A stretch of DNA of 64,000 nucleotides, from contig LNFF01000040.1 of NCBI GenBank assembly GCA_001464585.1, positions 7,267 through 71,266 of the forward strand, in the 5' to 3' direction. Positions within the stretch are counted from its first letter, which is position 1. The number at the start of each line of letters is the position of its first letter. The DNA is from Gammaproteobacteria bacterium Ga0077554 (GTDB lineage: Bacteria > Pseudomonadota > Gammaproteobacteria > Ga0077554 > Ga007554). Made by a program: the position numbers and the translations under genes. Of this stretch, positions 11,572 through 35,970 are shown one piece after another. The notes under the pieces are model-generated. The model made no database searches and was not told where the DNA came from. It saw nothing but the letters and a program-made list of their open reading frames with translations.

Positions 11572-12858
11572 ATGGATGATTTAACCACACTATTGCGCGA
11601 CTGGATGGATGCTCTGGGCACGCCTGCTGTGCAAGTGCAACTGGGTGTTATCACGTGCGCGGGTTTGTTTGGCGCATGGTTGTACCGTTATTGGACGCAA
11701 CGACTCGCCACGCTCTCGGCAACCTCTCCCGATCACTGGTTGCGTGATTTCTTTTTACGCGGGTTATCGCGGATTATTTTCCCCTTTGGCATGTTCCTGT
11801 TCATGGCGGTGGGCCGCGTTATCCTGCGCAAAGCGCGCATGGATGTCGAACTACTGGATAGCGTGATGCCCCTGGCGCTCTCCTGGGCGGCAATCCGTCT
11901 CGCGGTATTTATTTTACGCACCAGCTTTAATCCCACCCGCACACTTAAAGCATGGGAAGGCATTATCAGCACCACGCTGTGGGTGGCTGTCGCATTGCAT
12001 TTATTGGGATGGTTGCCGGATATTTTGAATGCGATGGATGAAATTGCATTCCACGCCGGCAAAGTCCACATTTCGCTACTTGCTGTCACCAAATTAGTGC
12101 TGGCGGTCGCCAGTCTGTTGATATTGGCGCTGTGGCTGTCTAATTTTATCGAGAAACGCCTGGCGGGCGCCAGTGATATGGACGCAGGTATGCGCATCGG
12201 CATTGCCAAGTTCAGCCGCTTCCTGCTGCTGACCTTTGCCCTGCTGCTCTCGCTGTATAGCGCCGGTATCGACTTAACGGCACTTGCCGTTTTCGGCGGA
12301 GCTTTAGGCGTGGGGCTAGGCTTTGGCTTGCAGCGCATCGCCAGTAATTTTATCAGCGGTTTTATTCTGGTGATGGACCGTTCGATTCGGCCGGGTGATG
12401 TTATTACCACCGGCAACACTTATGGCTGGGTACAGGAAATGCGCGCCCGCTACGTCGTCGTGCATACGCGTGATGGCTCTGACACCCTCATCCCCAATGA
12501 GAAATTAATCACCTCGGATGTGATTAACTGGAGCTATGCAAATCCCAACATGAGCATTTCATTGGCCCTGCGCATCAGCTATCAGGATGACCCGGAGCGC
12601 GCCATACAGATCATGCTCGATATTGCCCGCAAGCATGCTCGCGTGCTCAGTGATCCTGCGCCAAGCTGCATTTTGAAAGAATTTGGTGAGGCTGGGATTA
12701 CGCTAGAAATGACCGTGTGGATCAATGATCCCGAAGCCGGAATCACCAACGTACGCTCCGATCTGTATCTTGCGATCTGGAAAGCGTTCAAGCAACACGC
12801 CATTACGATTCCCCATACCCTCCCGCCTGCTCCACCAGCACCAGCGCCGGAAATATAA
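11572..12858 (+). CDS. mechanosensitive ion channel, MscS family
   Basis: Multiple N-terminal TM helices followed by the MscS beta-domain pattern ('GDVITTGNTYGWVQEMRARYVVVHTRDG...IPN'). The ATG at 11572 is preferred over the track start at 11500. Confidence 0.75.
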   Translation: MDDLTTLLRDWMDALGTPAVQVQLGVITCAGLFGAWLYRYWTQRLATLSATSPDHWLRDFFLRGLSRIIFPFGMFLFMAVGRVILRKARMDVELLDSVMPLALSWAAIRLAVFILRTSFNPTRTLKAWEGIISTTLWVAVALHLLGWLPDILNAMDEIAFHAGKVHISLLAVTKLVLAVASLLILALWLSNFIEKRLAGASDMDAGMRIGIAKFSRFLLLTFALLLSLYSAGIDLTALAVFGGALGVGLGFGLQRIASNFISGFILVMDRSIRPGDVITTGNTYGWVQEMRARYVVVHTRDGSDTLIPNEKLITSDVINWSYANPNMSISLALRISYQDDPERAIQIMLDIARKHARVLSDPAPSCILKEFGEAGITLEMTVWINDPEAGITNVRSDLYLAIWKAFKQHAITIPHTLPPAPPAPAPEI

Positions 12859-12897
12859 ACCCAAAAAATCCCACGCCGAGTCAGCGCAGAAACGAAG

Positions 12898-13012
12898 CCA
12901 GATTTCTCCCGGCAACTGCTCCTGCGTTGCTCTACCTTCCGCCATCCATGGCGGTCGCCTTCGGTCGAAATGACAGTGAGGCTGTCATCCCGAACGAAGA
13001 GAGGGATCTTGG
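12898..13012. repeat. MITE/REP-like nested palindromic element (family A, 'tgtcatttcgaccgaagg...cgaaatgaca', plus a 'gtcatcccgaacg' module)
   Basis: Near-identical to copies at 21885, 25775, 49845 and 57507. Confidence 0.8.
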
Positions 13013-13029
13013 TTTTTGAACGAACTTTC

Positions 13030-13266
13030 ACTGATGTCAGGAATGCGTTTCTCTACGGGAAAACCCTGATTCCTCCTCACATAATCCCTGATGTATGGGA
13101 TGAAATACCCAATAGCCGCGATGTAAATAATTTGTAACAATTTTGTCACATATGTCACGAAGCCGTAATGTTGAAGTGGTTTAAGCAGCGAAGCCCAGAT
13201 ATTTTGATGGCTATTTATTCATTAAACTCTGGTTAATGAACTTCAGCAGCGTGATGTGTGAAACAT
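13030..13266 (+). repeat. direct repeat copy 1 (237 bp, ~90% identical to 22150..22385): duplicated promoter region of the DASS transporter gene
   Basis: Hand alignment of 13030..13266 against 22150..22385 shows only scattered mismatches. Confidence 0.85.
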
Positions 13267-13362
13267 AGTGTATAGCCTGAAAAAAATAATGGGAACTGTT
13301 GACATTATCAATAATTGGGATTAAATTCCCATATAACAAGGATTGAACAGGGTCAACCACCT

Positions 13363-13458
13363 TACCGGCTTATAGCCGGGGCATAGCAGCGGGGGTGATC
13401 ACGCTCACCATCTGGTTGGGGTTGCCTGAACTCAATACGCAGGCACGCCTGGCTTTCA
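13363..13458 (+). repeat. direct repeat copy 1b (~96 bp, ~85% identical to 22489..22584): duplicated 5' coding fragment of the DASS transporter
   Basis: Encodes '...TIWLGLPELNTQARLAFIT', matching residues about 30-50 of the 22419..23990 protein. Confidence 0.8.
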
Positions 13459-13475
13459 TCACGGAGGATACTATC

Positions 13476-14819
13476 ATGAAGATCCTGCATTATTCTCATG
13501 ACAGCCTGGGGCTGGGACACATCCGGCGTACACTTGCCATCGTTCGCCAGCTCGCGCATGACCTGCCGGGCATCGGGCAACTGGTGCTTACCGGATCAAT
13601 GCAGTTTGGCGCCTACGAATGGCCGCCGCACGTGGATTGCGTGAAGCTGCCGACCCTTCGTAAAAAAACCAACGGCGAATATCACTCACCCTATTTACAT
13701 GGGTCGCTGGAAGCCGTTTCCACCCTGCGCGAGAGCATCATTCTGAGCACGATTAACTATTTCAATCCAGACCTTGTGCTTGTGGACAAGGCCCCGGCGG
13801 GCCTGAACGGCGAAATGATGCGCGCCCTGCATCGTCTCAAACAGGAACGCCCCCAGACGTTGCTGGTTCTGGGCATGCGCGACATTGAGGATGACTCCCA
13901 GACCACGCGCCGGGATTGGACACGCGGTAACATATATCCATTGCTGGAGAACATTTACGACGCCATTCTGCTCTACGGCGCGCGCGAGCTTTTCGATCCC
14001 GTGACCGAATACCATCTCTCGCCGACAATCGCCGACAAGATGCACCCGTGCGGCTATGTCTTCGGTGCCGGTGAGCGTGTGGTGGCGACGGAGTGCCTTC
14101 GCGAGAAACTCGGGCTACAGACGGAGCGCCTGGTGTTGGTGACAGCCGGTGGCGGCGCCGATGGATTTCAGGTCATCAAGACTTACCTTGAGATGCTGGC
14201 GAGCCGGCCGACACCCGCCCCTTTTCATTCCCTGATCGTTGCCGGCCCGCAGATGGCGGCTGCGGAATACAAGGTGCTGGAACAATGTGCCGCAGCGGTT
14301 GCCTCTCCGCTCACACTGAAACTCTTCACCCCCCATTTGTCGAACTACCTGCGCATCGCCGATCTGGTAATCACCATGGGCGGCTACAACACCGTGATGG
14401 AGATTTTGGGACACGGTCGATGCTCGATTATCGTGCCGCGCGTAAGCCCCCGCCGCGAGCAACTGATCCGTGCTGAACGCCTGGCGGCACGGAATCTGGT
14501 TCGCATGATCCACCCTGACGAGTTGACACCCGCACGCCTCCTGGCCGAAATGGACGCCGCCCTGGAACACAGTGATCGCGTCGATCCTGCCGGGATGGGC
14601 CTGCGCATGGACGGTGCGGAGAAGGCGAGTCGCATTCTCGCCGCGCTACTGGACACCCATGCCCACACGATGACCCACACGACAAAGGTCACACCACCTG
14701 TCCGCGCTGAGGCAATGTGCTCCAGCCAAAATTCTTCCGCAGCACCCGCCGGGGAGCGGCGCAAAAACCATAGCCAACGGCGCAAGGACCGAACTGTTCG
14801 GGACACATCCAATGGGTAA
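13476..14819 (+). CDS. GT-B glycosyltransferase (COG4671/MGT-like, GT1/GT28 superfamily)
   Basis: GGAGGA RBS 7 nt before the ATG at 13476. N-terminal 'MKILHYSHDSLGLGHIRRTLAI' matches the 'HxxxGxGH' start of GT1/28 enzymes. The track ORF extends upstream to 13395 only by reading through the duplicated transporter fragment. Confidence 0.6.
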   Translation: MKILHYSHDSLGLGHIRRTLAIVRQLAHDLPGIGQLVLTGSMQFGAYEWPPHVDCVKLPTLRKKTNGEYHSPYLHGSLEAVSTLRESIILSTINYFNPDLVLVDKAPAGLNGEMMRALHRLKQERPQTLLVLGMRDIEDDSQTTRRDWTRGNIYPLLENIYDAILLYGARELFDPVTEYHLSPTIADKMHPCGYVFGAGERVVATECLREKLGLQTERLVLVTAGGGADGFQVIKTYLEMLASRPTPAPFHSLIVAGPQMAAAEYKVLEQCAAAVASPLTLKLFTPHLSNYLRIADLVITMGGYNTVMEILGHGRCSIIVPRVSPRREQLIRAERLAARNLVRMIHPDELTPARLLAEMDAALEHSDRVDPAGMGLRMDGAEKASRILAALLDTHAHTMTHTTKVTPPVRAEAMCSSQNSSAAPAGERRKNHSQRRKDRTVRDTSNG

Positions 14820-16020
14820 GCCATTCCACGTCGGTTATGTCCTCAAGCGCTATCCGCGTCTCTCGGAAACCTTCATTGTCACCGAGATGCTTGAATTGCG
14901 GCGCCTCGGCGTGACGGTTACGATCCTGGCACAGAGAGATGCAGGCGAAACGCTGGTGCATGAAAAGACGCGCCAACTCGATGCGCCGATCTATTACCTG
15001 CCGCGCGTTTCCAGCCAGGAATGGCCGTTTCGCTATCACAAGGACGGGGTCAGCCCTGCGACTACCCTCGAGAGTGGCGGCGCCAATAGCGACGAGAGCA
15101 GCGGGCGCACCATGCTCGAGGCCGCCCTACTCGCGCCGCTGGTCGAGCGGCTTGGTATCGATCATCTGCACGCACACTTCGCCACCTGGGCGAGCGAGAT
15201 GGCCTGCCACGTCAGTGCGCTTACCGGCATCCCTTTCAGCTTTACCGCGCACGCCAAGGACATCTTTCACAACGATGTTAACAAACAGCAGTTGGCATGG
15301 AGGATGGCGCGGGCGAAACTCGTTATTACCGTGAGCGATTTCAACAAGGCCTACCTCAATGATCTGCTCGCCGTCTCCGGCAAAACCGGCCGGATCGAGC
15401 GCCTGTATAACGGCATCGATCTCGATTTGTTCGCACGGCAGGCACGCCACCCGGAGCCGGGGTTAATTGTCGGCATCGGACGTCTCGTGGAAAAAAAGGG
15501 TTTCGACTATCTCATTGATGCCTGCCGTCTGTTGAAGCAGGAAGGTCGGCAGTTCCGCTGCGTCATCGCCGGCGACGGCGAACAACGCGCCGCGCTCGCG
15601 GCGCGTATCAGCGAACACGGACTGGATAACGAGATCACGCTTGCCGGCGCCATGAGCCAGACCGAAGTGATCGCCTTGCTCAAACGCGCAACGGTGTTCG
15701 TTCTGCCATGCGTCGTGGGACGGGACGGCAACCGCGACGGCCTGCCGACTGTACTGCTTGAGGCGATGACCCTCGAAGTGCCTGTGGTTTCCACCCGCGT
15801 TACTGGCATCCCGGAAATCGTTGATCATGGGCAAACCGGCCTGCTGGTAGAGGAAAGGGACGCTACGGGACTGGCTGCGGCGCTTGCCGAATTACTCCAG
15901 GCACCAACGCTACGGCGACAACTCGGCGCCCGGGCACGGGAGAAAGTTGCGCGCCAGTTCAACACGGCCGAAAACGTAAAACAGCTCAGAGAGCATTTTA
16001 TCGTGAGCAGTGGAAGTTAG
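14812..16020 (+). CDS. GT4-family (group 1) glycosyltransferase
   Basis: 402 aa with GT-B fold cues and the C-terminal E-x7-E region ('EAMTLEVPVVSTRVTGIPE'). Overlaps the upstream GT stop by 8 nt. Confidence 0.7.
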   Translation: MGKPFHVGYVLKRYPRLSETFIVTEMLELRRLGVTVTILAQRDAGETLVHEKTRQLDAPIYYLPRVSSQEWPFRYHKDGVSPATTLESGGANSDESSGRTMLEAALLAPLVERLGIDHLHAHFATWASEMACHVSALTGIPFSFTAHAKDIFHNDVNKQQLAWRMARAKLVITVSDFNKAYLNDLLAVSGKTGRIERLYNGIDLDLFARQARHPEPGLIVGIGRLVEKKGFDYLIDACRLLKQEGRQFRCVIAGDGEQRAALAARISEHGLDNEITLAGAMSQTEVIALLKRATVFVLPCVVGRDGNRDGLPTVLLEAMTLEVPVVSTRVTGIPEIVDHGQTGLLVEERDATGLAAALAELLQAPTLRRQLGARAREKVARQFNTAENVKQLREHFIVSSGS

Positions 16021-16170
16021 AACCTGTTTAGAATCTCGATCAAGGGATGCAGCGCAAGGCAAAAGTAACCGAAAAAGCGGAGCATACACGAAGTATGTGA
16101 GCATTTTGAGGTTACTTTTAACGCCGCGATGCGCCCTTCAGCGAGATTCTAAATAGGTTCTATAGGAATT
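16021..16170. repeat. ~150-bp imperfect long palindrome / hairpin element in the GT4-GT4 intergenic region
   Basis: 'tagaacctgtttagaatctcg' (16021..) pairs with 'cgagattctaaataggttcta' (..16165). Inner arms 'aaaagtaacc' / 'ggttactttt' also pair. Confidence 0.6.
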
Positions 16171-16393
16171 TTGGGCTCACCCTATGCGCATGCTCGCGTT
16201 TCCGGAATATTTTATTCCGCCCTTTTCCGCAGGGGAGCAGACACTAACCACGGTCGACCGGGTATGTTTGTTATGGTATGGTATTGTCTGGTCAATGAGC
16301 TTCATTATCTGGCTCACCTGCTGCAACGCGACCTTGCCCTGCTGCCTGTTTTCGATCAGGTCAATCTTTGACAACCGCGAGTAGCCGTGCGCC

Positions 16394-17683
16394 ATGAACA
16401 GTAATAATCAGCATTCACGTCAAGATATGAAGATCCTGTATCTGTGCAGCGATCTGGGTATTCCTGTGCTCGGACGTAAGGGCGCTGCGGTGCATGTGCG
16501 CGTCCTGAGTGAGGCGTTACAGCGCGCCGGGCATACGGTGGTGCTCGCGGCGCCATCGTTGAACAAAGACCCGTGGGAAATTCCGCAGCAGATAAATGCT
16601 GCGCTGATGCATCTGCCGCCGTCACCCGAAGTGGCGCAGGCCGTACTCGGGTTAACGGAATTCAACGAATCGCTCGAGGTTGAAAACTCGCTGCCTGGCG
16701 AGTTGCGGCGCATTCTTTACAACCAGCAACTGGCGGCACAGCTCGAACGCCGCTTCCGCAACCACGCGCCGGATTTCATCCTTGAACGCGCGTCGCTGTA
16801 CGCCACGGCAGGTGTGCGCGTCGCACGTGCGCTTAATATTCCCTTGATTGTCGAACTCAACACGCCGCTGGCGCTCGAGCAATCCGCCTATCGCACCACG
16901 GGCCTGGGCGAGCTGGCCGCCCAGGCCGAGTGTTGGGCGCTGACACACGCCGATGCGGTATTCGCTGTTTCGGATCCGTTGCGCGATTATGTGCTGTCCC
17001 TCGGGGTCGCGTCCGAACGCGTACACGTGCTGCCGAACGGCGTTGATACGGCGCTGTTTTATCCCGCCCCCCGCAACCCCGAACTGCGCGCGCGGCTCAA
17101 TCTTGGCGATGGACCGGTGCTCGGCTTCGTCGGCGGGCTGCGGCCGTGGCACGGCGTTCAGGCCTTGCCGCTGCTGGTGGAGCGATTGGCGCCACGCTAT
17201 CCACACTTGCGCCTGGTTATCGTGGGCGAAGGGCCGATGCGGGCCGAATTGGATGCCGCCTTCCGGGCGCGCCGCATCCAGGAGCATGTGATCTTCACCG
17301 GTTCACTCCCGCACGACGAGGTGAGTGAACTGATTCGCCAATTTGATGTGGCGCTCGCGCCTTATCCCGTACTTGATCATGTGTTCTATTTCTCGCCCCT
17401 CAAACTGTTTGAGTACATGGCCTGCGGCGTGCCAGTGGTCGCGGCGGCCGTGGGCCAGATTGCCGAGGTGGTGCGCGATGGCGATACTGGCCTGCTCCAC
17501 CCGCCCGGCGATCTTGATGCGCTCGCCGCCGCATGCGCGCGACTCCTCGCCGACCCTGCGCTCCGCCAGCGCCTGGGAGAAACGGCGGCGGCAGAGGTTC
17601 ACTCCAACTACACCTGGACGCGGAATGCCACGCGCATCGTCGAACTGGCGCGCACGTTGATCGCACACCGCGCGGGCGGATGA
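16394..17683 (+). CDS. GT4-family glycosyltransferase (alternative start 16427)
   Basis: 'MKILYLCSDLGIPVLGRKGAAVHVRVLSEAL' is a typical GT4 N-terminus. C-terminal 'EYMACGVPVVAAAVGQIAEVV' supplies the EX7E region. Confidence 0.7.
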   Translation: MNSNNQHSRQDMKILYLCSDLGIPVLGRKGAAVHVRVLSEALQRAGHTVVLAAPSLNKDPWEIPQQINAALMHLPPSPEVAQAVLGLTEFNESLEVENSLPGELRRILYNQQLAAQLERRFRNHAPDFILERASLYATAGVRVARALNIPLIVELNTPLALEQSAYRTTGLGELAAQAECWALTHADAVFAVSDPLRDYVLSLGVASERVHVLPNGVDTALFYPAPRNPELRARLNLGDGPVLGFVGGLRPWHGVQALPLLVERLAPRYPHLRLVIVGEGPMRAELDAAFRARRIQEHVIFTGSLPHDEVSELIRQFDVALAPYPVLDHVFYFSPLKLFEYMACGVPVVAAAVGQIAEVVRDGDTGLLHPPGDLDALAAACARLLADPALRQRLGETAAAEVHSNYTWTRNATRIVELARTLIAHRAGG

Positions 17684-18729
17684 TAACGATGCAGCATCCT
17701 TCCATTACGGTTGTCGATCCATTCGGCATTGCGGCAGATGTGAAGCTGCCGCAGGCGCGCCTCGCGCTCGATCCGACCGAGGTCGAGCCGCAACTTGAGC
17801 GGCTTTCGCGCTTAGCAGGAAAAGGCGGGCGCGTGCGGTTGCTGGCCATCCGCGTGATCCGCTACAAGCCGGGGCGGCGTTGCATGCTCGAATACGACGT
17901 GGCGGTGCCGACGGCCACTGGCGCACGGGAACTTACGCTCATCGGCAAGATGCGCGCGCGGCACCATGCCCGAGTCCCCTGCCGCCTGCTCGATACTCTG
18001 TGGAACACGGGTTTTGACGCGAACAGCAACGACGGCATTTCGGTACCCGAGCCTGCGGGGGTGATCAGCCGGTTCAATCTGTGGTTGCAGCATAAAGTTC
18101 CAGGGCGTCCACTGGGGGATCTGCTTTCAGGTTCCGAGGGTACAGCGCTGGCGCGGCGTGTTGTCGACGCCGTTCACAAGCTGCATATTGCGGGCGTTCC
18201 GACCGAACGGCGTCATACGCTGGCGGATGAGTTGCGAATCCTGCACGAACGTCTGCCCCGGGTGGCGCAGGAGCACCCCGGCTGGAGCCAACGCCTCGAG
18301 CACCTGCTGGCGGCCTGCGACCGACTCGGCGCCGACTTGCCACCGCCTGTAGAGCACGGTATCCATCGCGATTTTTACGCCGACCAGGTTATCGTTGACG
18401 GCGAGCGGCTGTATCTCCTCGATTTTGATCTCTATTGCGCCGGTGATCCAGCACTCGATATCGGTAACTTCGCTGGCCATATCATTGAGCAGCGCCTACG
18501 CCTGTCGGGAGACTCCTTAGCCCTCGCGGAATGCGAACAAGCCCTGGTCGAGCGCTTTGTGGAACTGGCTGGCCCGGCGTCGCGGCACGCGGTGGCTGTA
18601 TATACCACCCTGACGCTGGTGCGGCATATTTACTTAAGCACATTGTTTCCTGAAAGGCGCGTGTTGACCGGCAAGCTGCTTGAACTGTGCGAGCAGCGAC
18701 TGAGCCCGTGGCTCTGCGGAAGACCCTGA
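17680..18729 (+). CDS. kinase of the APH / LPS-kinase (WaaP/Kdo kinase) protein-kinase-like fold
   Basis: 'HGIHRDFYADQVIVDGERLYLLDFDL' contains the catalytic-loop HRD...N-like and DFD motifs of APH/WaaP-type phosphotransferases. Its ATG overlaps the stop of the upstream GT4 (ATGA). Confidence 0.55.
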   Translation: MITMQHPSITVVDPFGIAADVKLPQARLALDPTEVEPQLERLSRLAGKGGRVRLLAIRVIRYKPGRRCMLEYDVAVPTATGARELTLIGKMRARHHARVPCRLLDTLWNTGFDANSNDGISVPEPAGVISRFNLWLQHKVPGRPLGDLLSGSEGTALARRVVDAVHKLHIAGVPTERRHTLADELRILHERLPRVAQEHPGWSQRLEHLLAACDRLGADLPPPVEHGIHRDFYADQVIVDGERLYLLDFDLYCAGDPALDIGNFAGHIIEQRLRLSGDSLALAECEQALVERFVELAGPASRHAVAVYTTLTLVRHIYLSTLFPERRVLTGKLLELCEQRLSPWLCGRP

Positions 18730-18731
18730 AC

Positions 18732-20528
18732 ATGAAAAAACGGGACCGGTTGACTCGCATAGTACTTTCGCACCTTGGACGCATGAAAGGCGGTCTGGCG
18801 CTCGCGGCGGTGTGCACGCTGGGTGTCGTGGCTCTTGATCTGCTCGCTCCCTGGCCCCTAAAAATACTGTTCGATCACATCCTGCTCGAGAAACCCCTGG
18901 GTTCCGCACTCTCGTTTCTTGATGGCGTGCTGGCGCGCGGGCCGCTCGTCGCGCTCGCCACGCTCGCGGCAATGATCGTGCTGATCGCGCTCGGCAAGGC
19001 CGCGTTCCTGTATTTCCAGGTCTTTCAGACTTCGCGCATAGGCTATCAGTTGGTGTTCGAGTTGCGCCGGGAACTGTTTCAGCACTTGCAGGGCCTATCG
19101 CTGTCGTATCACAACCGCGCCCGCGCCGGGGACCTGCTTAACCGCATCACCAGCGACACCCACAACCTGCGGGACACTTTCACCGAATCCGCACTCGCCT
19201 TCGGCACCCACCTGCTCACCATCGTGGGCATGCTCGTGGTGATGTTCGCGCTCAATTGGCGGCTGGCGCTGATCGCGGCCGTGACGTTTCCCCTGCTGCT
19301 CGTGGTGCTGATATTGTTCTATGCGCGCGTCAAGGCCACGATGAAAAAACAGCGGCGACGGGAAGGCAAGATCGCCGCGCGCCTCGGCGAGGTGTTCGCC
19401 ACTGTGCCACTGGTGCGCGCCTTCGGGCGCGAGCGCTATGAAATCGCGCAGTTCGAGACGCAAAGCACCAAGCATCTGGAGGAAGGCATTCGCGCGCTGC
19501 GGCTCGAAGCGGCGGCGATACGCGCTACCGAAATCATCAGCGCCTTTGGCCTCGGCGCGACCGTGTTCTATGGCGCATTGCAGGTGCTCGCGGAGCGCAT
19601 GACACCCGGCGATCTGCTGGTGTTCTCGGCCTATGTCTCGCGCATGTATAGCCCGATACGTCAAGTCGCCAAGCTGTTGCTCAAATTTAACAAGGCGGCG
19701 GTCAGTGCGGAACGCCTGCGCGAGATCCTCAACGAAGAGCCCGAGATACCCGACCGGCCGGATGCAATCGAGGCGCACGACCTCAAGGGCGAGATCCGCT
19801 TCGATGGCATCTCGTTCGGTTATGGTGAAGGGGACAAGACATTAAATGACATCAGTTTCAGCATCGCCCCAGGGCAACGGCTGGTGCTGGTCGGCGCCTC
19901 CGGCGCTGGCAAATCAACCCTCGTCAATCTACTGCTGCGCCTGTATGAGCCCACCAGCGGTGCTATTTTCGTGGACGGCCACGACATCCGCGACTATCGG
20001 CGCGAATCCCTCCGGCGCGAGATCGGAATCGTGTTGCAGGACAACGTGCTGTTCGGCGCCAGCGTCCGCGAGAACATCGCTTACGGCAAGCTCCACGCCA
20101 CGCCGGAAGAAGTCGAGGCGGCGGCGCGCGCCGCCCATGCGCACGAGTTTATCGCGGCCCTGCCTGAAGGTTACGACACCCTCGTGGGGGAACGCGGCGC
20201 GACTCTTTCCGGTGGGCAGCGCCAGCGCATCGGGCTGGCGCGCGCCCTGATCAAGCGCCCGTCAATCCTGATCCTCGACGAGCCCACCTCGGCTCTCGAT
20301 GCCAGTTCCGAGGCGCTGATCCAGGAGGTGATTGAGCGTCTGCAGCAAGGCAAGACCACAATCCTGATCGCGCACCACTTTCGCTATATCAAGCATACCG
20401 ATCATGTTCTCGTGCTCAAGCAGGGCATTATCGCGGAACAAGGGAAGGCGCGGGAACTGATGGCGATGAAGGGTCATTATTACGATCTGTATGTGCATCA
20501 GGAATCTGATGCGCGCACCCGGCGATGA
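18732..20528 (+). CDS. fused permease-ATPase ABC exporter (type I, MsbA-like)
   Basis: 6 N-terminal TM helices, Walker A 'GASGAGKST', signature 'LSGGQRQR', Walker B 'LILDEPTSALD'. The start 18732 is chosen 2 nt after the kinase stop. Confidence 0.8.
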   Translation: MKKRDRLTRIVLSHLGRMKGGLALAAVCTLGVVALDLLAPWPLKILFDHILLEKPLGSALSFLDGVLARGPLVALATLAAMIVLIALGKAAFLYFQVFQTSRIGYQLVFELRRELFQHLQGLSLSYHNRARAGDLLNRITSDTHNLRDTFTESALAFGTHLLTIVGMLVVMFALNWRLALIAAVTFPLLLVVLILFYARVKATMKKQRRREGKIAARLGEVFATVPLVRAFGRERYEIAQFETQSTKHLEEGIRALRLEAAAIRATEIISAFGLGATVFYGALQVLAERMTPGDLLVFSAYVSRMYSPIRQVAKLLLKFNKAAVSAERLREILNEEPEIPDRPDAIEAHDLKGEIRFDGISFGYGEGDKTLNDISFSIAPGQRLVLVGASGAGKSTLVNLLLRLYEPTSGAIFVDGHDIRDYRRESLRREIGIVLQDNVLFGASVRENIAYGKLHATPEEVEAAARAAHAHEFIAALPEGYDTLVGERGATLSGGQRQRIGLARALIKRPSILILDEPTSALDASSEALIQEVIERLQQGKTTILIAHHFRYIKHTDHVLVLKQGIIAEQGKARELMAMKGHYYDLYVHQESDARTRR

Positions 20529-21865
20529 GCCGTCATACAGCCATCAGCTTCATGCTTTCCGGAATCCTCGCCTTGGCGCCGCTGGGGGCTCGGGCCGAAG
20601 CGCCCCCAGGGCCGACGATCCCGGAAGGCGCGCCTGAAACCCAGGTCACGGACGTCGATACCGCTGTCCTGCCGCCGCTGCCTTTTCATCCCGCACCATG
20701 GTTATCCATGGGCGCGATGGTCAAACTCACTCTGGCAAGCGGCGAGAACGTCAGTATCGCGGGTTCAGCGCCGCCCCGCCAGCGGTCATCCGAAGCGGTG
20801 TTAACCACGGCGGCCAGCGTTTCCCTGGCGCCGAACCTAGGGATCTTTACTGCGGCCGAGCTGGTACGTGACAAGAGAACGGGGCGGTCGCTGGACACAA
20901 ATGCTGAGATCACGGTCGCCTACCTGCTTTGGAACCGGATGTTCTCATCTCCGTTCACCCTGCAGTTGGGACGCCAGCGTTTCGCCGACGAGCGTCAGTG
21001 GTTGTTCGACGAAAATCTCGACGGCGTGCGCGTGCAGGGGAAGTTCGGCCGTCTGGTGGGTGAAATTTCCGGCAGCACCTATCTGAACCCAAAAAGCGAC
21101 AGCCAAGAGATGGAGAATTACCTGTTGCGCGCCGATTTTCACTTTACCCCCCAGGATCGTCTCGGCGTGTACGCGTTTCATCGCAAAGACCCGCTCAGCG
21201 AAAACAATGATCGTACCTATCTGGGAGTGAACGGCGCGGCGCGGGTATCCGGGCACAAACTCTGGCTCGATGCGGCCTTACTCTCTGGCGATAATGGCGC
21301 GCGTCAGCGCCAAAGCTTCGGCGCTGACGCAGGCATAACATTGCGCTTCGGTGCTGATCGGCAATGGGCTGTTACCCTGGCCCATGCCGTGGGCTCGGGG
21401 GATGGCAACCGGGACGATAACCTCGACAAAACTTTTCGCCAGACGAACCTGCACGACAATGAGGCGCGGTTCAACGGTGTAACGAGATTCAAATATTACG
21501 GTGTCGTCACCGATCCCGAACTAAGCAATCTCCGCATCGCCACGGCCGGCATCGGGCTGAACCCAAATCGGCAGTATTCCATCGATCTGGTGTATCACGC
21601 CTACGAACAGATCGTCGAGAACGACCGGTTCCGTTCGGAAGTAATCCAGGATCCCAATGGAGAACAGCGACGACTGGGCGCAGAGATCGATCTTATCTTC
21701 GGTGCGCGCGTGGGCAAATATTTCCGTATCCATGGGACGGTCGGGGTGTTCCAGCCCGGAGCCGCGTTTGACGACACCCGTCGGGTGGTCTTTGGCGAGA
21801 TCGAACTGCGATTGGCAGCGTCCCCACCAAAGCCCGCAAAAGCGGTTAAACCGGTCACAAAATAA
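20525..21865 (+). CDS. signal-peptide-bearing protein, probable outer-membrane beta-barrel (alginate-export/AlgE-like porin candidate)
   Basis: Cleavable signal 'ALAPLGARA/EAP'. Alternating amphipathic beta-strand pattern rich in G, D, N and aromatic residues. ATGA start/stop overlap with the ABC exporter. Confidence 0.45.
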   Translation: MSRHTAISFMLSGILALAPLGARAEAPPGPTIPEGAPETQVTDVDTAVLPPLPFHPAPWLSMGAMVKLTLASGENVSIAGSAPPRQRSSEAVLTTAASVSLAPNLGIFTAAELVRDKRTGRSLDTNAEITVAYLLWNRMFSSPFTLQLGRQRFADERQWLFDENLDGVRVQGKFGRLVGEISGSTYLNPKSDSQEMENYLLRADFHFTPQDRLGVYAFHRKDPLSENNDRTYLGVNGAARVSGHKLWLDAALLSGDNGARQRQSFGADAGITLRFGADRQWAVTLAHAVGSGDGNRDDNLDKTFRQTNLHDNEARFNGVTRFKYYGVVTDPELSNLRIATAGIGLNPNRQYSIDLVYHAYEQIVENDRFRSEVIQDPNGEQRRLGAEIDLIFGARVGKYFRIHGTVGVFQPGAAFDDTRRVVFGEIELRLAASPPKPAKAVKPVTK

Positions 21866-21884
21866 GGCGCAACCCCATCAATGT

Positions 21885-22039
21885 TGTCATTTCGACCGAA
21901 GGCGACCGCCATGGATGGCGGAAGGTAGAGCAACGCGCCGGGCAGGATGCCCAAGTGCGGTGGGCGCAGGGATGCGCAAGAACCGCCCGGAGCAGTTGCC
22001 GGGAGAAATCTTAAGATTCCTCGCTGCGCTCGGAATGAC
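21885..22039. repeat. MITE/REP-like element, family A with a 'cgaggaatcttaag...cggaatgaca' module
   Basis: Matches 12898, 25775 and 49845. Confidence 0.8.
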
Positions 22040-22149
22040 ATGGTTTATGTAACCTGTCCCAAGTTTATTAAGCGAACAGTATTGAGGCGCAACCCGGTGC
22101 GCCATTACTCGCCGAAGTGACATCCGCTCTGCCGTTTCTAATGGAAAAC

Positions 22150-22385
22150 ATGACATCAGCAATGAGTTTTCTACAGGAAAACCCTGATCTCCCTCCCCAC
22201 AATCCCTGACATATGGGATGAAATACCCAATAGGCGCGGCGTAAATAATTTGTAACAATTGTGTCACATATGTCACGAAGCCGTAATATTGAAGTGGTTT
22301 AAGCAGCAAAACCCAGATGTTTTGATGGACATTCATTCATTAAACTCTGGTCAATGAACTTCAGCAGCGTGATGTGTGAAACATA
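22150..22385 (+). repeat. direct repeat copy 2 (promoter region of the DASS transporter); a second block 22489..22584 matches 13363..13458
   Basis: See copy 1. Confidence 0.85.
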
Positions 22386-22418
22386 AGTGTCATAAAGCGC
22401 CATGGAGAGGTAATCAAC

Positions 22419-23990
22419 ATGATCATGCCTCAAGGAGTGAGCACCTTGCCAGCCACGGGGCACCCCGGCTGGCCCTTTAAGCAACATTACCGGCTCATAG
22501 CCGTGAGTGTAGCAGCGGTGGTGGTCACGCTCGCCATCTGGTTCGGGTTGCCGGAACTCAATACGCAGGCACGCCTGGCTTTCATTACTTTCAGCCTGGC
22601 GCTTATTGGATGGTGTTTCACCACGATCAATGACACCTACATCGCATTGGTGGCGGCGATAATTCCCAGCGTAATAGGTACTGGCGCGCCCAACGAATTT
22701 TTCGAGGCATTGGGTGACTCCATGATCTGGTTGCTGTTCGCGGCATTCATCATCGCCGCAGCGGTAAGTGCGTCCGGCCTCTCGCGCCGTTTGACGATGG
22801 CGGTGGTCAGTCGGGCGCACTCTGTAAATCAATTGTTTTATGCGTTGACCGCCGCGATTATCGCCACAGCTTTTGTCATTCCTTCCACATCCGGCCGCGC
22901 GGCGCTGATGTTGCCGATTTTCATTGCGCTGAGCACCACCATCAATGATGCGCGCATCACCAAAGCGTTGGCGCTGCTTTTCCCCACAGTGATCTTGTTG
23001 TCGGCGGTTGCGTCACTGATTGGTGCGGGCGCGCATCTGGTGACCGCCGATCTGCTGCTGCACATGACGGGACAGCGTATTGGCTTTTGGGAATGGATGG
23101 TATGGGGGCTACCGTTTGCGCTGGTGAGTTGTTTTGTTTCGACGTGGTTAATCCTGCGCCTGTTCCTGAACAAGGAAGAACAGCATAAGCCCGTGCAATT
23201 CAGCGTGGCGCAAATTGAAAAGGGCGACGATAGTTCTGATCCCAAGGCGTTTTCCAGGCAAGAGCGCTACATGTTAATACTGGTGGTGGCCCTGGTCACC
23301 TTGTGGGCCACGGAACCATTACACGGCGTCAACAATACCATGGTCGCCATCGTCGGAGCCTTGCTGGCGACGGCGCCAAAATTTGGCGTGTTTTCGTTCA
23401 TGGAGGCCGTCAAGAAAGTTGAGTGGAGCTTGCTGATTTTCCTGGCGGCGACCATGGAGATAGGCGAGTCCTTGATTGAGTCAGGTGGCGCCAAGTGGTT
23501 GGCGGATCACTTGTTCGAGATGTTGCAGGGTGGAGCCGCAACCTCTGCATGGCTTGTGGTTTCTGTTGTCGCGGCGGTTTCGTTGCTCTCGCATTTGCTC
23601 ATTAATTCGCGCACTGCGCGTTCCTCAGTGCTGGTTCCGCTGGTGATTTTGCTGGGCCTGTCGCTGGGGTTTCAACCGGCGGGGCTGGCGTTCCTCTCCA
23701 CTGCGGCAGCCGGTTTTTGTCTGACGTTGATGGTCAGCGCCAAACCCGTCGCCATGTTTGGCCAGATCGAGGCGTCCACCTATACCGCGCAGGATCTGTT
23801 GCGTTTGAGCGCTGTGCTGTTGCCGATACATTTTGTATTGCTCGTGGTATTCGCCTTTTTTGTCTGGCCTTATCTGGGGTTGGAGTTTCTGCCTGACCCG
23901 ACTGCAGTTCATCAGACACCGACGTGGACGGAATGGCAACCTTCACCCGCACAGACGTCGACGGTCGCTGTTGCTATGCAGGGTAAATAA
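22419..23990 (+). CDS. DASS/SLC13-type (ArsB/NhaD superfamily) anion or carboxylate transporter
   Basis: 523 aa with about 12-14 TM helices and an internal duplication pattern. GGAGAGG RBS. Confidence 0.65.
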   Translation: MIMPQGVSTLPATGHPGWPFKQHYRLIAVSVAAVVVTLAIWFGLPELNTQARLAFITFSLALIGWCFTTINDTYIALVAAIIPSVIGTGAPNEFFEALGDSMIWLLFAAFIIAAAVSASGLSRRLTMAVVSRAHSVNQLFYALTAAIIATAFVIPSTSGRAALMLPIFIALSTTINDARITKALALLFPTVILLSAVASLIGAGAHLVTADLLLHMTGQRIGFWEWMVWGLPFALVSCFVSTWLILRLFLNKEEQHKPVQFSVAQIEKGDDSSDPKAFSRQERYMLILVVALVTLWATEPLHGVNNTMVAIVGALLATAPKFGVFSFMEAVKKVEWSLLIFLAATMEIGESLIESGGAKWLADHLFEMLQGGAATSAWLVVSVVAAVSLLSHLLINSRTARSSVLVPLVILLGLSLGFQPAGLAFLSTAAAGFCLTLMVSAKPVAMFGQIEASTYTAQDLLRLSAVLLPIHFVLLVVFAFFVWPYLGLEFLPDPTAVHQTPTWTEWQPSPAQTSTVAVAMQGK

Positions 23991-25774: not shown

Positions 25775-25885
25775 TGTCATTTCGACCGAAGGCGACCGCC
25801 ATGGATGGCGGAAGGTAGAGCAACGCAGGAGCAGTTGCCGGGAGAAATCTTTTGCGTAGGATTTCTCCCTTCGGTCGAAATGACA
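25775..25885. repeat. MITE/REP-like element, family A (complete hairpin form)
   Basis: 'tgtcatttcgaccgaaggcgaccgccatggatggcggaaggtagagcaacgcaggagcagttgccgggagaaatc...gatttctcccttcggtcgaaatgaca'. Confidence 0.85.
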
Positions 25886-31475: not shown

Positions 31476-33194
31476 TCAACCGGCTTTTCTGGAACGCGTA
31501 TCTGCGCCCATCAGGAACAGCCGCGATGTTGGGCCCTCGCGATTCAGTAGTTCCCGCGCTGGACCACTTTCTATGAGCCGCCCATCTTGCAGATGCCAGA
31601 TGACATCCGCCCTGGCGGCATATTCCAGGCGGTGTGTCACCAGCAAAATGGTGCCGTGATATTCTTCGAGGATGCGCCGCAGCACCGCGCCCGCCTGCGG
31701 GTCGAGGTTGGCGTCCGCCTCGTCCAGCAATAACACAGTTGGTTCACCGAGCAACGCCCGCGCCAGGGCGATGCGTTGCCGCTGACCGAGTGAGAGGTTG
31801 ACACCGGCATCGTTGATGCGGGTTTTCATGCCGTTGGGCAGGGTCTTGATAATTTCATCAAGCGCGCAAAATGCGCTGACTTTGGTAACTTCTTCATCTG
31901 GCGCCTGCTGCCAGCGATAGCGCAAGTTATCCTCCACCGTACCGCGCGTCAACGGCAGGTCGGGGCTTGCCATGCTGATAGCGCGACGCACTGACGCCAG
32001 GCTGCAGGCCATCAGGTCTTGTCCATCCAGCAGGATGGCGCCGCTCTGCGGCTGGATCAGGCGTGTCACCGCCAGCAGCAGCGTGGACTTGCCGGCGCCG
32101 TTCGGTCCCACGATGGCGATCGTCTGGTGCGGCTCCGCAACCGCAGAAAAGGCATGCAGCCCCTCCAGGCTCAACTCCTTGAACTCGAGCCGACCGGGCC
32201 CGGGCTGCAAATCCTGCGCGCCGGGGATCTCCGGGGGTGGCGCAGGCGTGTTGATAAAGTCGAGTAGTTTTTCGCGCGCCACGATTGTCCCCTGCCAATA
32301 CTCATACACCCGCCCCAGGTCGCGCAACGGCGGCGTCAACAACCCCACGATACTCATCGCCGCCACCACGGTGCCGGGCGTGACCTGGCCGGTGATAACT
32401 TCCAGCGCTCCCAGAATCAGCACGGCGCTGGCGGTGAGGGCGGCAGTGGCCTCGGTAATGCCGCGCAACTGGCCCGTGACGCGGGCCTGATCCACCATAG
32501 CCTCTTTGAGGTGTCGGCTCTGGTTCGCAACGCGCTGGCGCTCCCGGTCTGAGCGGCCGAACACCTGCATGACAGCGAGCGCAGAAACTTTCTCATTGAT
32601 ATTCGCGGCAAGCTGCGCACGGCGGCGGCGCGCCTCACGCACCGCCGCCTGCATGCGCTTGCCTTGGGCGAGCACTACCACGCCACCCACTAACAGCATT
32701 GAGCCTGCCGCGAGCGCCAATATGCCGTTCACGAAAGATAAAGCGAAGGTCGCGCCCGCGATGCTCACTCCGCCCACGATGAGCCGCGCCACACCCAAAC
32801 TTACCCAGCGCCTGAATACTGTCAAGTCACCGATGAAGCGCAGCATCACCCCACCACGACTGCGTTTTTGCGTGGTGCGCACTGCCGAATTTCTCAGGCT
32901 GTCGAACAGCAGCATGCGCACCTGCTCCACATAATCCTGGCCCATGCGTTCAGCATCGGTGTATTCCGTCATACGTAGCCAGGCAACGAACAGGGCCGCC
33001 AGCGCAAGGCCAACGGCAACCCATGCCAGGGACTCCGTTGCCTGAGATCCATTAGCGGTGATGATATGATCAAAAACGAACTTGATCAGCAAAGCGATAA
33101 TCACTGCCGCTCCGGCCTGCGCCAGGCCATTGAGCACCAGACGGATCAACCATGTTGAGCGCCGTTTTTCCAATATGCGAGGCAGGTCCATCAC
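31476..33194 (-). CDS. fused permease-ATPase ABC exporter (CydD/CydC- or MsbA-like)
   Basis: 6 TM helices, Walker A 'GPNGAGKST', signature 'LSLGQRQR', Walker B 'LLLDEADANLD'. Confidence 0.75.
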   Translation of the reverse strand: MMDLPRILEKRRSTWLIRLVLNGLAQAGAAVIIALLIKFVFDHIITANGSQATESLAWVAVGLALAALFVAWLRMTEYTDAERMGQDYVEQVRMLLFDSLRNSAVRTTQKRSRGGVMLRFIGDLTVFRRWVSLGVARLIVGGVSIAGATFALSFVNGILALAAGSMLLVGGVVVLAQGKRMQAAVREARRRRAQLAANINEKVSALAVMQVFGRSDRERQRVANQSRHLKEAMVDQARVTGQLRGITEATAALTASAVLILGALEVITGQVTPGTVVAAMSIVGLLTPPLRDLGRVYEYWQGTIVAREKLLDFINTPAPPPEIPGAQDLQPGPGRLEFKELSLEGLHAFSAVAEPHQTIAIVGPNGAGKSTLLLAVTRLIQPQSGAILLDGQDLMACSLASVRRAISMASPDLPLTRGTVEDNLRYRWQQAPDEEVTKVSAFCALDEIIKTLPNGMKTRINDAGVNLSLGQRQRIALARALLGEPTVLLLDEADANLDPQAGAVLRRILEEYHGTILLVTHRLEYAARADVIWHLQDGRLIESGPARELLNREGPTSRLFLMGADTRSRKAG

Positions 33195-33366
33195 GGCTCC
33201 TTAGTGGACGCGCGCTGAATCAGGCGGGGGGATCCTTTCAGCATCTTAATATACAACAACGCAAATCATAGCATGCTGTGCGCACGTACTTATGTCGTCC
33301 TGTATAGTAATGATACTCTTGTTGAGGGGGGCAATCTTTTAGGGTAAACCCTGATAAGGAAACTAC

Positions 33367-34071
33367 TTACACTGCCAAATGTTGGTTAATTATTTTTTCA
33401 TCCAGGCTGGTCATCGCACCCGAAGCGACGATGCGCCCCTTCTCCATAATACGGAAATAGTCGCCCGCACGTTGCGCAAACGCCAATTTCTGTTCGATCA
33501 GCAAGACAGTAACATTCTGCTCACGATTCAGCCGAATAATCGCATCACCGATATCATGCACGATATTCGGTTGTATGCCTTCGGTAGGTTCATCCAGAAT
33601 CAACAATCGGGGGGCGGCACACAGCGCGCGGCCGATAGCCAATTGTTGCTGTTGGCCACCTGACAAATCGCCACCCCGACGTGCCAGCATTTTCTTTAAT
33701 ACCGGAAACATTTCAAAGACGCTGCCGGGTATATCACGCACACCGTCCTGACGTCCGGCGAGACCTACCCGCAGATTTTCCTCTACACTCAATTGCGAAA
33801 ATATTTCACGTCCTTGTGGAACATAAGCAATGCCTGACCATGCGCGCTGGTGCGGCGGCACCCCGGTAATATTTTTTTCCGCAAAAGTAATGGATCCTGA
33901 CGTCACGGGCAGCACACCCATCAGGCATTTCAGCAAGGTAGTTTTACCCACACCGTTACGTCCCAGCACCACCGTGCATGAACCTTCTGGCACCTCGAAA
34001 GTAACATCACGCAAGGTGTGGCTGCCACCATAATATTGATTAATTCCGTTGACAGAAAGCATAGACATCAA
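33367..34071 (-). CDS. urtE: urea ABC transporter ATP-binding subunit UrtE
   Basis: LivF-like ATPase. It is the last gene of a five-gene Urt operon adjacent to urease genes. Confidence 0.8.
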   Translation of the reverse strand: MMSMLSVNGINQYYGGSHTLRDVTFEVPEGSCTVVLGRNGVGKTTLLKCLMGVLPVTSGSITFAEKNITGVPPHQRAWSGIAYVPQGREIFSQLSVEENLRVGLAGRQDGVRDIPGSVFEMFPVLKKMLARRGGDLSGGQQQQLAIGRALCAAPRLLILDEPTEGIQPNIVHDIGDAIIRLNREQNVTVLLIEQKLAFAQRAGDYFRIMEKGRIVASGAMTSLDEKIINQHLAV

Positions 34072-34877
34072 CCCAGGTAAACTTCAATCACGCGTGGGTC
34101 GTTTTTAATCTGCTCCATATTGCCTTCCGCAAGCACGCTACCTTCATGCAATACCGTGACTTTACGCGCAATGGTGCTGATAAAATTCATGTCATGCTCT
34201 ACTACAATCAATGAATGTTTGCCTGCAAGCGCCTTGAATAATTCGGCGGTACGTTCTATTTCCTGGTCTGTCATGCCCGCCACAGGCTCATCCAGCAGCA
34301 ATAGTTTTGGCTCCTGAATAAGCAACATACCAATTTCAAGCCATTGCTTTTGCCCATGCGAAAGTAACCCGGCCAATGTTTTAGCATGATCCGACAAGTT
34401 AATGAGCGACAGGATCTCATCAATCCTGGCCTGCTGGCTCGCGCTTAAGCGTGCAAACAAACTACGCCATAAACCCTTGTCAGTCTTCAATGCCAGTTCC
34501 AGATTATCAAATACGCTATGGTTGTGAAATACCGTAGGCTTCTGGAATTTTCGGCCAATGCCCGCATGCGCGATCTGATATTCAGATAACTCTTGCAGAT
34601 CTATGGTCTGCCCAAAAAAAGCCGTGCCAGAATCAGCACGCGTTTTTCCAGTAATCACATCCATAAGCGTGGTCTTGCCCGCACCGTTCGGGCCAATAAT
34701 ACAGCGCAATTCACCCACATCAATGCTTAACGTCAATTTGTTAAGCGCCTTGAACCCATCAAAACTCACGGTCACATCTTCCAGATACAATATAACGCCA
34801 TGCGTTACATCCAGCGTCGTGGTATGAGCCGCCCACCCCTGTCCTACCTTATCCTCGCGCTGCTGAATGCCACTCAT
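34068..34877 (-). CDS. urtD: urea ABC transporter ATP-binding subunit UrtD
   Basis: LivG-like ATPase ('GPNGAGKTT', 'LSHGQKQ', 'LLDEP'). 4-nt overlaps on both sides. Confidence 0.8.
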   Translation of the reverse strand: MSGIQQREDKVGQGWAAHTTTLDVTHGVILYLEDVTVSFDGFKALNKLTLSIDVGELRCIIGPNGAGKTTLMDVITGKTRADSGTAFFGQTIDLQELSEYQIAHAGIGRKFQKPTVFHNHSVFDNLELALKTDKGLWRSLFARLSASQQARIDEILSLINLSDHAKTLAGLLSHGQKQWLEIGMLLIQEPKLLLLDEPVAGMTDQEIERTAELFKALAGKHSLIVVEHDMNFISTIARKVTVLHEGSVLAEGNMEQIKNDPRVIEVYLG

Positions 34878-35959
34878 GTCTTCTTAAACCGTCGCAATAA
34901 ACCAATCACCCCTTGCGGTAAAAATAAGGTGACGATAATAAATATGAAGCCCAGGAAAAATAACCAATACTCGGGAAAAGCCGCTGTAAACCAGCTTTTG
35001 GCGCCATTCACCAATCCTGCACCCAGCAATGGCCCGACCAGTGTGCCGCGCCCGCCTACAGCAGCCCAAATAGCGATTTCAATGGAATTGGCGGGGGACA
35101 TTTCACTGGGGTTAATAATGCCGACCTGGGGCACGTACAGCGCGCCGGCAATGCCGCACAACACCGCCGAGAACGTCCAGGCAAATAATTTATAATGCAG
35201 GGGGTTGTAGCCACAGAACATCAAGCGGCTTTCCGCATCACGGATGGCGGTTAATACCCGTCCCAACTTTGATACTACAATGAAGCGGCACATCAGCAGC
35301 GCCATCATCAAAAAAATCGCCGTGGCGATAAACAGGCCAGCACGGGTGGCCGGATCCGTTAATGAATAGCCGACAATGCGCTTGAAATCCGTAAAGCCGT
35401 TATTGCCGCCAAATCCTGTTTCGTTGCGGAAAAATAACAGCATGAAGGCAAAGGTCAATGCCTGGGTGATAATGGAAAAATACACGCCTTTAATGCGCGA
35501 ACGAAATGCGAAATAACCGAAAATAAAAGCCAGCAGCCCCGGCGCAAGCACTACCAACAATAAGGCATACCAAAACATATCCGTGCCCTGCCAATACCAC
35601 GGCAATTCCTTCCAGTCCAGAAATACCATGAAATCCGGCAAGGTACTGCCATATTGTCCTTCGGTACCGATCATGCGCATCAAATACATGCCACAGGCAT
35701 AACCCCCCAAAGCAAAAAATAATCCATGCCCGAGACTTAATATGCCCGCATAACCCCAGATCAAATCCATGGCCATGGCAACAATGGCATAGCACATGAT
35801 TTTCCCGATCAGGGACAGGGCATAATCAGGCACTCGCAACGCGCTGCTTTCTGGCAAAAAAAGATTTAACGCGGGGATCACAATCACAAACAACAGGCCG
35901 AACAGGCCTAATGCCGCCCATCCTTTGATACCATACAAATTTGAAAAATACTGCGCCAT
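34874..35959 (-). CDS. urtC: urea ABC transporter permease UrtC
   Basis: LivM-like permease, 361 aa. Confidence 0.8.
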   Translation of the reverse strand: MAQYFSNLYGIKGWAALGLFGLLFVIVIPALNLFLPESSALRVPDYALSLIGKIMCYAIVAMAMDLIWGYAGILSLGHGLFFALGGYACGMYLMRMIGTEGQYGSTLPDFMVFLDWKELPWYWQGTDMFWYALLLVVLAPGLLAFIFGYFAFRSRIKGVYFSIITQALTFAFMLLFFRNETGFGGNNGFTDFKRIVGYSLTDPATRAGLFIATAIFLMMALLMCRFIVVSKLGRVLTAIRDAESRLMFCGYNPLHYKLFAWTFSAVLCGIAGALYVPQVGIINPSEMSPANSIEIAIWAAVGGRGTLVGPLLGAGLVNGAKSWFTAAFPEYWLFFLGFIFIIVTLFLPQGVIGLLRRFKKT

Positions 35960-35970
35960 GCGTTCGCCCT

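Follow-up and report, generated by a model that had tools for sequence, protein, structure and literature searches.

Kinases of the eukaryotic-like kinase (ELK) fold that act in glycan pathways are an already known kind of enzyme. Proteins resembling aminoglycoside phosphotransferases (APH) or eukaryotic protein kinases (ePK) work on glycans in pathways that depend on ATP-binding cassette (ABC) transporters, some of them fused to glycosyltransferase (GT) modules, and WbdD of Escherichia coli O9a and the APH-like kinase of Klebsiella pneumoniae O7 ORF6 act as glycan terminators (PMC3482155, PMC11231755). Among APH-fold kinases of free sugars, glucosamine kinase (GlcNK) uses K133, D300, Q305 and D317 of its 'DFD loop' for catalysis and Mg binding, and maltokinase (Mak/Pep2) uses HGD305, Q310 and D322 of its DFE motif for catalysis with two Mg ions (PMC6520443, PMC4306142). 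The present analysis concerns a kinase, designated K1, encoded in a 64,000-nt stretch of DNA from Gammaproteobacteria bacterium Ga0077554 (assembly GCA_001464585.1, contig LNFF01000040.1, positions 7,267 to 71,266, forward strand; hereafter the window), where it lies among three glycosyltransferase genes, an ABC exporter gene and an outer-membrane barrel gene. Its sequence indicates that K1 is very probably an active kinase of the APH superfamily, whose substrate likely belongs to the glycan pathway of this cassette; with moderate confidence, we favour the full explanation in which K1 phosphorylates the cassette glycan, which is then exported. The genes of the cassette are as follows.

13476..14819, forward strand: GT28_C-containing glycosyltransferase (GT1/GT28 clan, MurG/MGT-like), first cassette gene, 447 aa; Pfam PF04101, 4.4e-11
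14812..16020, forward strand: GT4 glycosyltransferase GT4a; Pfam Glycos_transf_1, 5e-41, and Glyco_transf_4
16394..17683, forward strand: GT4 glycosyltransferase GT4b; Pfam Glycos_transf_1, 8e-32, and Glyco_transf_4, 1e-22
17680..18729, forward strand: kinase K1, 349 aa, APH/ELK superfamily; inferred catalytic residues K90, D231, Q236 and D248 (DFD loop 248-250)
18732..20528, forward strand: half-size ABC exporter with transmembrane domain (TMD) and nucleotide-binding domain (NBD), MsbA/NdvA/HepA-like, 598 aa; Pfam ABC_membrane, 4e-46, and ABC_tran, 8.5e-39
20525..21865, forward strand: AlgE-like alginate-export outer-membrane beta-barrel; Pfam PF13372, 2.2e-26

The kinase family and its catalytic signature

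The frame of K1 comprises 349 codons free of internal stops. A protein identical to K1 has been called on 8 public contigs, one of which, a 317-kb contig from a drinking-water-treatment metagenome, includes the window. A word-indexed search returned more than 1300 homologues, and exhaustive HMMER searching of 1.84 billion protein cluster representatives returned 5040 relatives at E<=1e-3 and 742 at E<=1e-30. Since the identical protein recurs on 8 contigs and the relatives number in the thousands, K1 is a genuine gene and not a chance open reading frame (ORF). An in-frame ATG at 17689, three codons on, is an equally possible start, and the choice between the two leaves GT4b and K1 within a few bases of each other. 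A longer frame from 17533 was rejected, as it would overlap GT4b by about 150 nt and the N-termini of homologues give it no support.

In Pfam, K1 matches APH (PF01636) alone, with 42.7 bits against a cutoff of 23.2 (E 7e-11, residues 119-266), and no match to the Kdo/WaaP family (PF06293) was obtained at E<=1. No NCBIfam family is reached above its threshold; the best match is the lanthipeptide kinase LxmK (NF038156), at 38.9 bits against a cutoff of 315. At E<=1, no resistance-APH model of NCBIfam matches K1, and neither a maltokinase model nor the Mak N-terminal cap is found in it by Pfam or NCBIfam. A preliminary description of this DNA, made from the letters alone, had regarded K1 as intermediate between aminoglycoside phosphotransferases and lipopolysaccharide (LPS)-core kinases, and had proposed comparison with the APH, Kdo/WaaP and maltokinase models. 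The APH side of that placement is borne out by PF01636, while the LPS-core side is lost: with PF01636 as the only Pfam match, it rests solely on the HRD motif. Assignment to antibiotic-resistance clades, which the same description had named as the outcome that would count against a glycan kinase, did not occur among the NCBIfam models.

Structural comparison leads to a similar position. Against sequences in the PDB, K1 reaches a best E of 0.5 as a single sequence and 0.0055 as a family profile, which leaves no recognisable solved relative; APH sequences match only at E 0.14-0.95, and Mak and GlcNK were not retrieved by phmmer or hmmsearch. K1 has the bilobal kinase fold with a C-terminal helical subdomain. 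Its Foldseek neighbours have TM-scores of about 0.5-0.6, with LxmK at the top and WaaP missing from the first 50, and WaaP, Kdo and Rio-type minimal kinases are not its closest structural neighbours. Within the APH superfamily, K1 forms a divergent branch that lies about equally far from every characterised member.

The catalytic signature of this branch is K90 / H229-R-D231 / Q236 / D248-F-D250. Residues 227-264 read HGIHRDFYADQVIVDGERLYLLDFDLYCAGDPALDIGNF, the very string of HRD and DFD motifs quoted in the preliminary description. In an alignment of 46 close relatives, K90 (in the 'GK' that ends the third strand), H229, D231, D248-F-D250, G255, P257, L259, D260, G262 and N263 are invariant, and R230 and Q236 are kept in at least 90%; invariant basic residues are R205, R274, R315, R326, H267 and H316. 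Signature counts, made on 264 of the 270 family proteins collected, gave HRD in the K1-type domain of 259; the D+5 position is Q in 232, H in 24 and N in 8, followed at constant spacing by eleven residues and D[FL]D. Judged by motif position, K90 would be the beta-3 lysine, D231 the catalytic aspartate and D248 the Mg-binding residue of the superfamily, and all three are invariant or nearly so.

K1 conforms to the pattern of maltokinase and glucosamine kinase, HxD-x4-Q with a DF[DE] loop 12 residues later. The equality of residue types and spacings with both enzymes (D to Q, +5; Q to D, +12) speaks for a catalytically competent K1 and connects it, at the level of motifs, with the free-sugar kinases. 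This link is not family membership, because the cap domain, the family models, the D-x-H motif and the motif of helix alpha-12 are all missing. In addition, K1 reads HRD and not HGD, has no sequence-level match to the maltokinase/actinobacterial GlcNK group, begins with a different N-terminal extension of about 50 aa, and is encoded in a context of glycosyltransferases and ABC export instead of TreS/GlgE.

The cassette, its relatives and its gene fusions

The genes of the cassette are tightly packed. The K1 start codon (17680-17682) shares bases with the TGA (17681-17683) of the GT4b ORF, 16394-17683, forming the ATGA overlap that the preliminary description had reported, and the two genes are translationally coupled. 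K1 stops at 18729 and the ABC exporter starts at 18732, the exporter stop and barrel start overlap at 20525-20528, and the GT28-like and GT4a genes overlap at 14812-14819. The 4-nt overlap of GT4 and kinase also appears in the gene calls of the distant relatives L008, L010, L011-L013 and L014, whereas in L006 a 69-nt gap takes its place.

The core cassette, consisting of a GT28-like transferase, two GT4 transferases, the kinase and an MsbA-like ABC exporter, is conserved. Relatives with 55-62% kinase identity hold the same gene set plus extras: a second APH-like protein and a porin in L006, a second kinase and a run of sulfotransferases in L008 (at least 7) and L010, and four sulfotransferases with a UDP-sugar dehydrogenase in L014. 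In many cassettes, 2-8 sulfotransferases or a nucleotide-sugar dehydrogenase are present in addition. Among 80 metagenome loci gathered with the family alignment, 46 extend 1.3 kb or more upstream of the kinase, and in 39 of these the adjoining upstream gene is a GT4 in the same orientation; the 23 loci that reach 8 kb contain the ABC exporter in 21 cases, GT4 in 20 and the GT28-like gene in 16. The neighbour of the kinase is in many loci of GT4a type or GT28, not GT4b. The nearest genomic relative of the window cassette is in a Nitrosomonadales metagenome-assembled genome; the single-sequence search of genome contigs returned one locus, which under-samples the taxonomic spread of the cassette in genomes.

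At 33-37% kinase identity, the full cassette is found on plasmids of E. coli and Paracoccus. At 32389-42567 of NZ_CP042296.1, plasmid p1RM9088 of E. coli RM9088 carries GT28, GT4, GT4, ABC, APH, phosphotransferase, alginate-export protein and nucleotide-sugar dehydrogenase genes, and a Paracoccus aestuarii plasmid carries GT28, GT4, GT4, ABC and a 740-aa double kinase. The cassette occurs in 18 of 5426 complete E. coli genomes, always on a plasmid (conjugative IncF) and under generic gene names. Since the E. coli cassette is flanked by unrelated genes, its eight genes plus host precursors appear to be self-sufficient.

Gene fusions add a physical dimension to this association. In L019, L037 and L043, a GT28-like transferase is joined to the C-terminus of the K1 domain in one ORF of 761-768 aa, as verified by translation and Pfam. 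A length of at least 700 aa is reached by 117 of the best 150 cluster representatives at 50% identity, which are counted as tandem kinase-kinase proteins; in the representatives scanned, the K1-type half is C-terminal and a second APH domain (HGD...Q...D[LF]D) N-terminal. Furthermore, P0242 (1404 aa) combines an ABC exporter with two kinases in succession, P0245 an ABC exporter with a kinase, and P0164 a sulfotransferase with two kinases. In these independent fusions, the kinase is physically linked with a transferase, with the exporter or with a further enzyme that modifies hydroxyl groups.

Several sister cassettes show features of their own. Tandem sulfotransferase runs directly follow the second kinase in L008 (14263-21041), L010 (14229-16003), L014 (10239-14065) and L085 (5950-9357); they suggest a heavily sulfated small glycan, of which no description was found. 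The stand-alone second kinase of L006 (13152-14525) has an ePK-like loop, HRDLKPDH, and a duplicated N-terminal segment, while its counterpart, the N-terminal domain in the fused 800-aa proteins, has HGD....Q; the two kinases of a cassette may differ in substrate, or one may be regulatory. In the distant relative L015 (2-5561), an ABC exporter fused to a WD40/beta-propeller (1025 aa) is followed by a tandem kinase (819 aa) and a metallophosphoesterase. No transferases occur in the 6 kb downstream, the upstream side lying beyond the contig end at which the ABC gene begins, and the kinase-exporter pair may represent an older core of the system. L037 (156-1514) and L080 (6456-8921) encode a TolC-like outer-membrane efflux protein or a large outer-membrane-protein beta-barrel with a carboxypeptidase-regulatory-like domain, either of which may replace the AlgE-like porin as an interchangeable outer-membrane component.

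Full-text literature searches found no paper on the cassette or the kinase family, and RefSeq gives only generic names. Neither the cassette nor the kinase family, with its HRD/Q/DFD signature and habitual tandem or fused architectures, appears to have been described before.

Proposed phosphorylation of a cassette glycan and the alternatives

K1 and the three transferases have zero predicted transmembrane segments, whereas such segments are predicted in the ABC exporter. The closest NCBIfam models to the exporter are MsbA_rel (435 bits), MsbA (423), HepA (420) and a glucan exporter (360), all under their cutoffs. NdvA/ChvA-type exporters move cyclic glucan, so this exporter class can carry soluble oligosaccharides, and glucan-exporter models are among those nearest to the window protein. 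The barrel begins with a signal-peptide-like N-terminus, MSRHTAISFMLSGILALAPLGARA; the AlgE family conducts anionic polymer, and members of this barrel family are also encoded by the E. coli plasmid cassette and by L006. Concerning the transferases, the GT28-like gene has an alternative GTG start at 13395, its NCBIfam scores (MurG 32.8 bits, MGT 28.7 bits) are far under cutoff, and its PDB matches are weak and confined to the UDP-sugar-binding half. GT4a is best matched by EpsE (199 bits) and WcaL (150 bits), again under cutoff.

The intact active site, the soluble cytoplasmic protein, the translational coupling, the almost invariant association with three transferases and an exporter, and the fusions together argue that K1 acts on a cassette carbohydrate. 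What class of substrate K1 uses, when it acts with respect to the transferases and what becomes of its product would then be as follows. The three transferases would build a short oligosaccharide or a glycosylated acceptor at the cytoplasmic face of the inner membrane. K1, as a soluble, cytoplasmic, ATP- and Mg-dependent small-molecule kinase dedicated to glycan assembly and export, would move the gamma-phosphate of ATP onto a sugar hydroxyl of that carbohydrate or glycosylated acceptor. The phosphorylated, and hence anionic, product would be pumped out by the ABC exporter and would cross the outer membrane through the AlgE-like barrel. The preliminary description had K1 probably phosphorylating the glycan of the adjacent transferases; genomic context and fusions give good support to a glycan substrate. 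The sulfotransferases and sugar dehydrogenases of sister cassettes fit a theme of negative-charge installation on the glycan. A wider and only tentative proposal is that the cassette represents an undescribed, widespread and mobile pathway in which kinases, joined by sulfotransferases in many lineages, charge a short oligosaccharide at the MsbA-like exporter, yielding a small polyanionic glycan secreted through a dedicated barrel; kinases fused to exporter or transferase would then be the charge-installing step that licenses export.

Several observations weigh against phosphorylation of a cassette glycan by K1. Structure comparison gives sugar kinases no special place, since maltokinase scores no higher than homoserine kinase II, the peptide kinase LxmK, a choline-kinase-like protein or a steroid kinase, and the K1 family is uncharacterised, with thousands of members. 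The sugar-binding D-x-H is replaced in K1 by D231-F-Y233, and a regular-expression search found no GlcNK helix motif (Q-x2-RE-x2-YA-x3-LP-x-W). A priming enzyme, a polymerase, a ligase and a periplasmic adaptor are all missing from the cassette, so that the acceptor could be a lipid, a polyprenol-linked sugar or a soluble metabolite, and a search of the window found no second kinase, which occurs in many relatives.

A specialised and distinctly less probable form of the favoured reading is that K1 phosphorylates only the non-reducing end, halting extension and signalling to the ABC exporter. As in the WbdD and O7 ORF6 systems, the kinase is encoded with glycosyltransferases and an ABC exporter; it is located at the C-terminus of the exporter in P0242 and P0245 and fused to a glycosyltransferase in other relatives, and the GT4 enzymes could act iteratively. 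The APH-like kinase joined to GT modules in Klebsiella O7 provides a published precedent (PMC11231755; also PMC3482155). The likeness of K1 to WbdD and to the AmiN/APH-like ORF6 kinase was traced no further than the superfamily fold, and no methyltransferase domain was found by Pfam in any ORF of the cluster, a coiled-coil ruler not having been searched for. The exporter is of the fused TMD-NBD, ABC_membrane type, which differs from a Wzm/Wzt pair. Whereas the LPS of O-antigen terminator pathways would use ligation and Lpt, this cassette has an AlgE-like barrel. Moreover, several kinases and up to 8 sulfotransferases per cassette fit decoration at multiple sites better than a single cap.

Phosphorylation could also come first, with K1 acting on a free sugar or polyol and GT4 then glycosylating the phospho-acceptor. 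The coupling of GT4b to K1 and the Q/DFD signature common to K1 and free-sugar kinases are in keeping with such priming, as are the best solved relatives of GT4b, namely sucrose-phosphate synthase Tll1590 (3e-23), maltose-1-phosphate synthase GlgM (4e-20) and MshA (7e-18), followed by PimA. Sucrose-phosphate synthase, GlgM and MshA all use phosphorylated acceptors. Because GT4a matches the same solved enzymes, however, this signal is largely generic to GT4, and the PDB matches of the two transferases name no acceptor. With GT4a-type or GT28 neighbours of the kinase in many loci, no recurring phosphatase in the cassette, and fusions with exporter and sulfotransferases that point to late steps, priming is rather improbable.

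It is very unlikely that K1 is a peptide or protein kinase, either acting in the manner of LxmK/TvaE on Ser/Thr of a ribosomal peptide or regulating the exporter or transferases by phosphorylation. LxmK, a class V lanthipeptide kinase, is the nearest single neighbour of K1 in both NCBIfam and Foldseek, but its score is far under the cutoff, no LxmY-like or other lyase partner was seen, and no precursor peptide is conserved across the cassettes, in which the invariant companions are three glycosyltransferases. The D+2 residue of the K1 catalytic loop is Tyr, not Lys/Arg (compare PMC4702295). Small ORFs in the 16021-16393 spacer, considered as possible ribosomally synthesised and post-translationally modified peptides, look spurious and were rejected, and small ORFs called in other cassettes lack counterparts at further loci. 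Anti-phage defence, considered after weak matches to GT4-conflict and TCAD9, was likewise rejected: PADLOC matched neither the kinase nor the transferases, the porin or a tandem kinase, and its matches for the ABC exporter were only generic ATPase ones. A WaaP/WaaY-type LPS-core kinase or an antibiotic-resistance APH is hardly credible: K1 would resemble WaaP by analogy, in kinase-like fold, HRD loop, presumed sugar substrate and a pathway with GT4 and an MsbA-type exporter, but it matches neither PF06293 nor any resistance-APH model.

Possible mobility, flanking features and significance

Beyond the genes, the cassette is marked by repeats and a palindrome, the positions of which are given below.

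13037..13271, forward strand: direct repeat, left copy, about 235 nt, upstream of the GT28-like gene; 89.5% identical to the right copy
22156..22390, forward strand: direct repeat, right copy, ending 29 nt before the DASS-family transporter gene (22419)
16018..16162, no strand assigned: nested palindrome, 145 nt, in the GT4a/GT4b spacer; inverted arms 16018-16046 and 16134-16162

The direct repeat, of which the window has two copies only, brackets the whole cassette and could be an insertion or recombination scar or a common regulatory leader. The G+C content of the cassette (13600-21900), at 0.58-0.66, exceeds that of the adjoining 3-4 kb, at 0.44-0.57. This difference, the bracketing repeat and the copies on plasmids jointly suggest horizontal movement of the cassette. 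The palindrome begins at the GT4a stop codon and is predicted to fold as RNA at -77 kcal/mol (z = -11.7); it has no further copy in the window and no Rfam match. It makes up much of a spacer that measures 374 nt here against about 93 nt in the nearest relative, L005, and may be an insertion resembling a miniature inverted-repeat transposable element (MITE) or a strong hairpin that separates the operon into a pair of transcription units. Scanned against Rfam, 12500-22600 yielded nothing at E<=0.1, and a promoter and terminator scan performed no better than on shuffled sequence.

A shorter repeat of 52 nt, GCGTTGCTCTACCTTCCGCCATCCATGGCGGTCGCCTTCGGTCGAAATGACA, occurs at 98-100% identity at 12924-12975 and, on the reverse strand, at 21885-21936, 25775-25826 and 49845-49896, with partial 37-nt copies at 57507-57564. 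Both orientations are thus present in the window, the copies placed against ORFs are intergenic, and the element may be a dispersed repeat of the genome similar to repetitive extragenic palindromic (REP) sequences or MITEs. The genes around the cassette, a mechanosensitive channel upstream and the DASS-family transporter and a glycerate kinase downstream, are not conserved in relatives. Elsewhere in the window, 34000-46000 contains a Peripla_BP_5 binding protein and a BPD_transp_2 permease, read as urea ABC transporter components, near a urease alpha subunit gene, which would fit a ureolytic organism resembling the Nitrosomonadales; 39722-42025 encodes a phytase-like esterase protein.

Secreted phosphorylated or sulfated bacterial glycans are poorly understood, and with only six to eight genes the cassette gives simple genetic access to them. 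Soil and water metagenomes contain it in abundance, and its carriage on E. coli plasmids provides a tractable host. If K1 merely decorates an ordinary exopolysaccharide, the outcome would be a useful annotation and no surprise. Work on K1 could, on the other hand, uncover a new coupling of glycan modification to ABC export. The substrate of K1, once identified, would give a function to thousands of genes now labelled 'aminoglycoside phosphotransferase family' and would end their reading as resistance genes.

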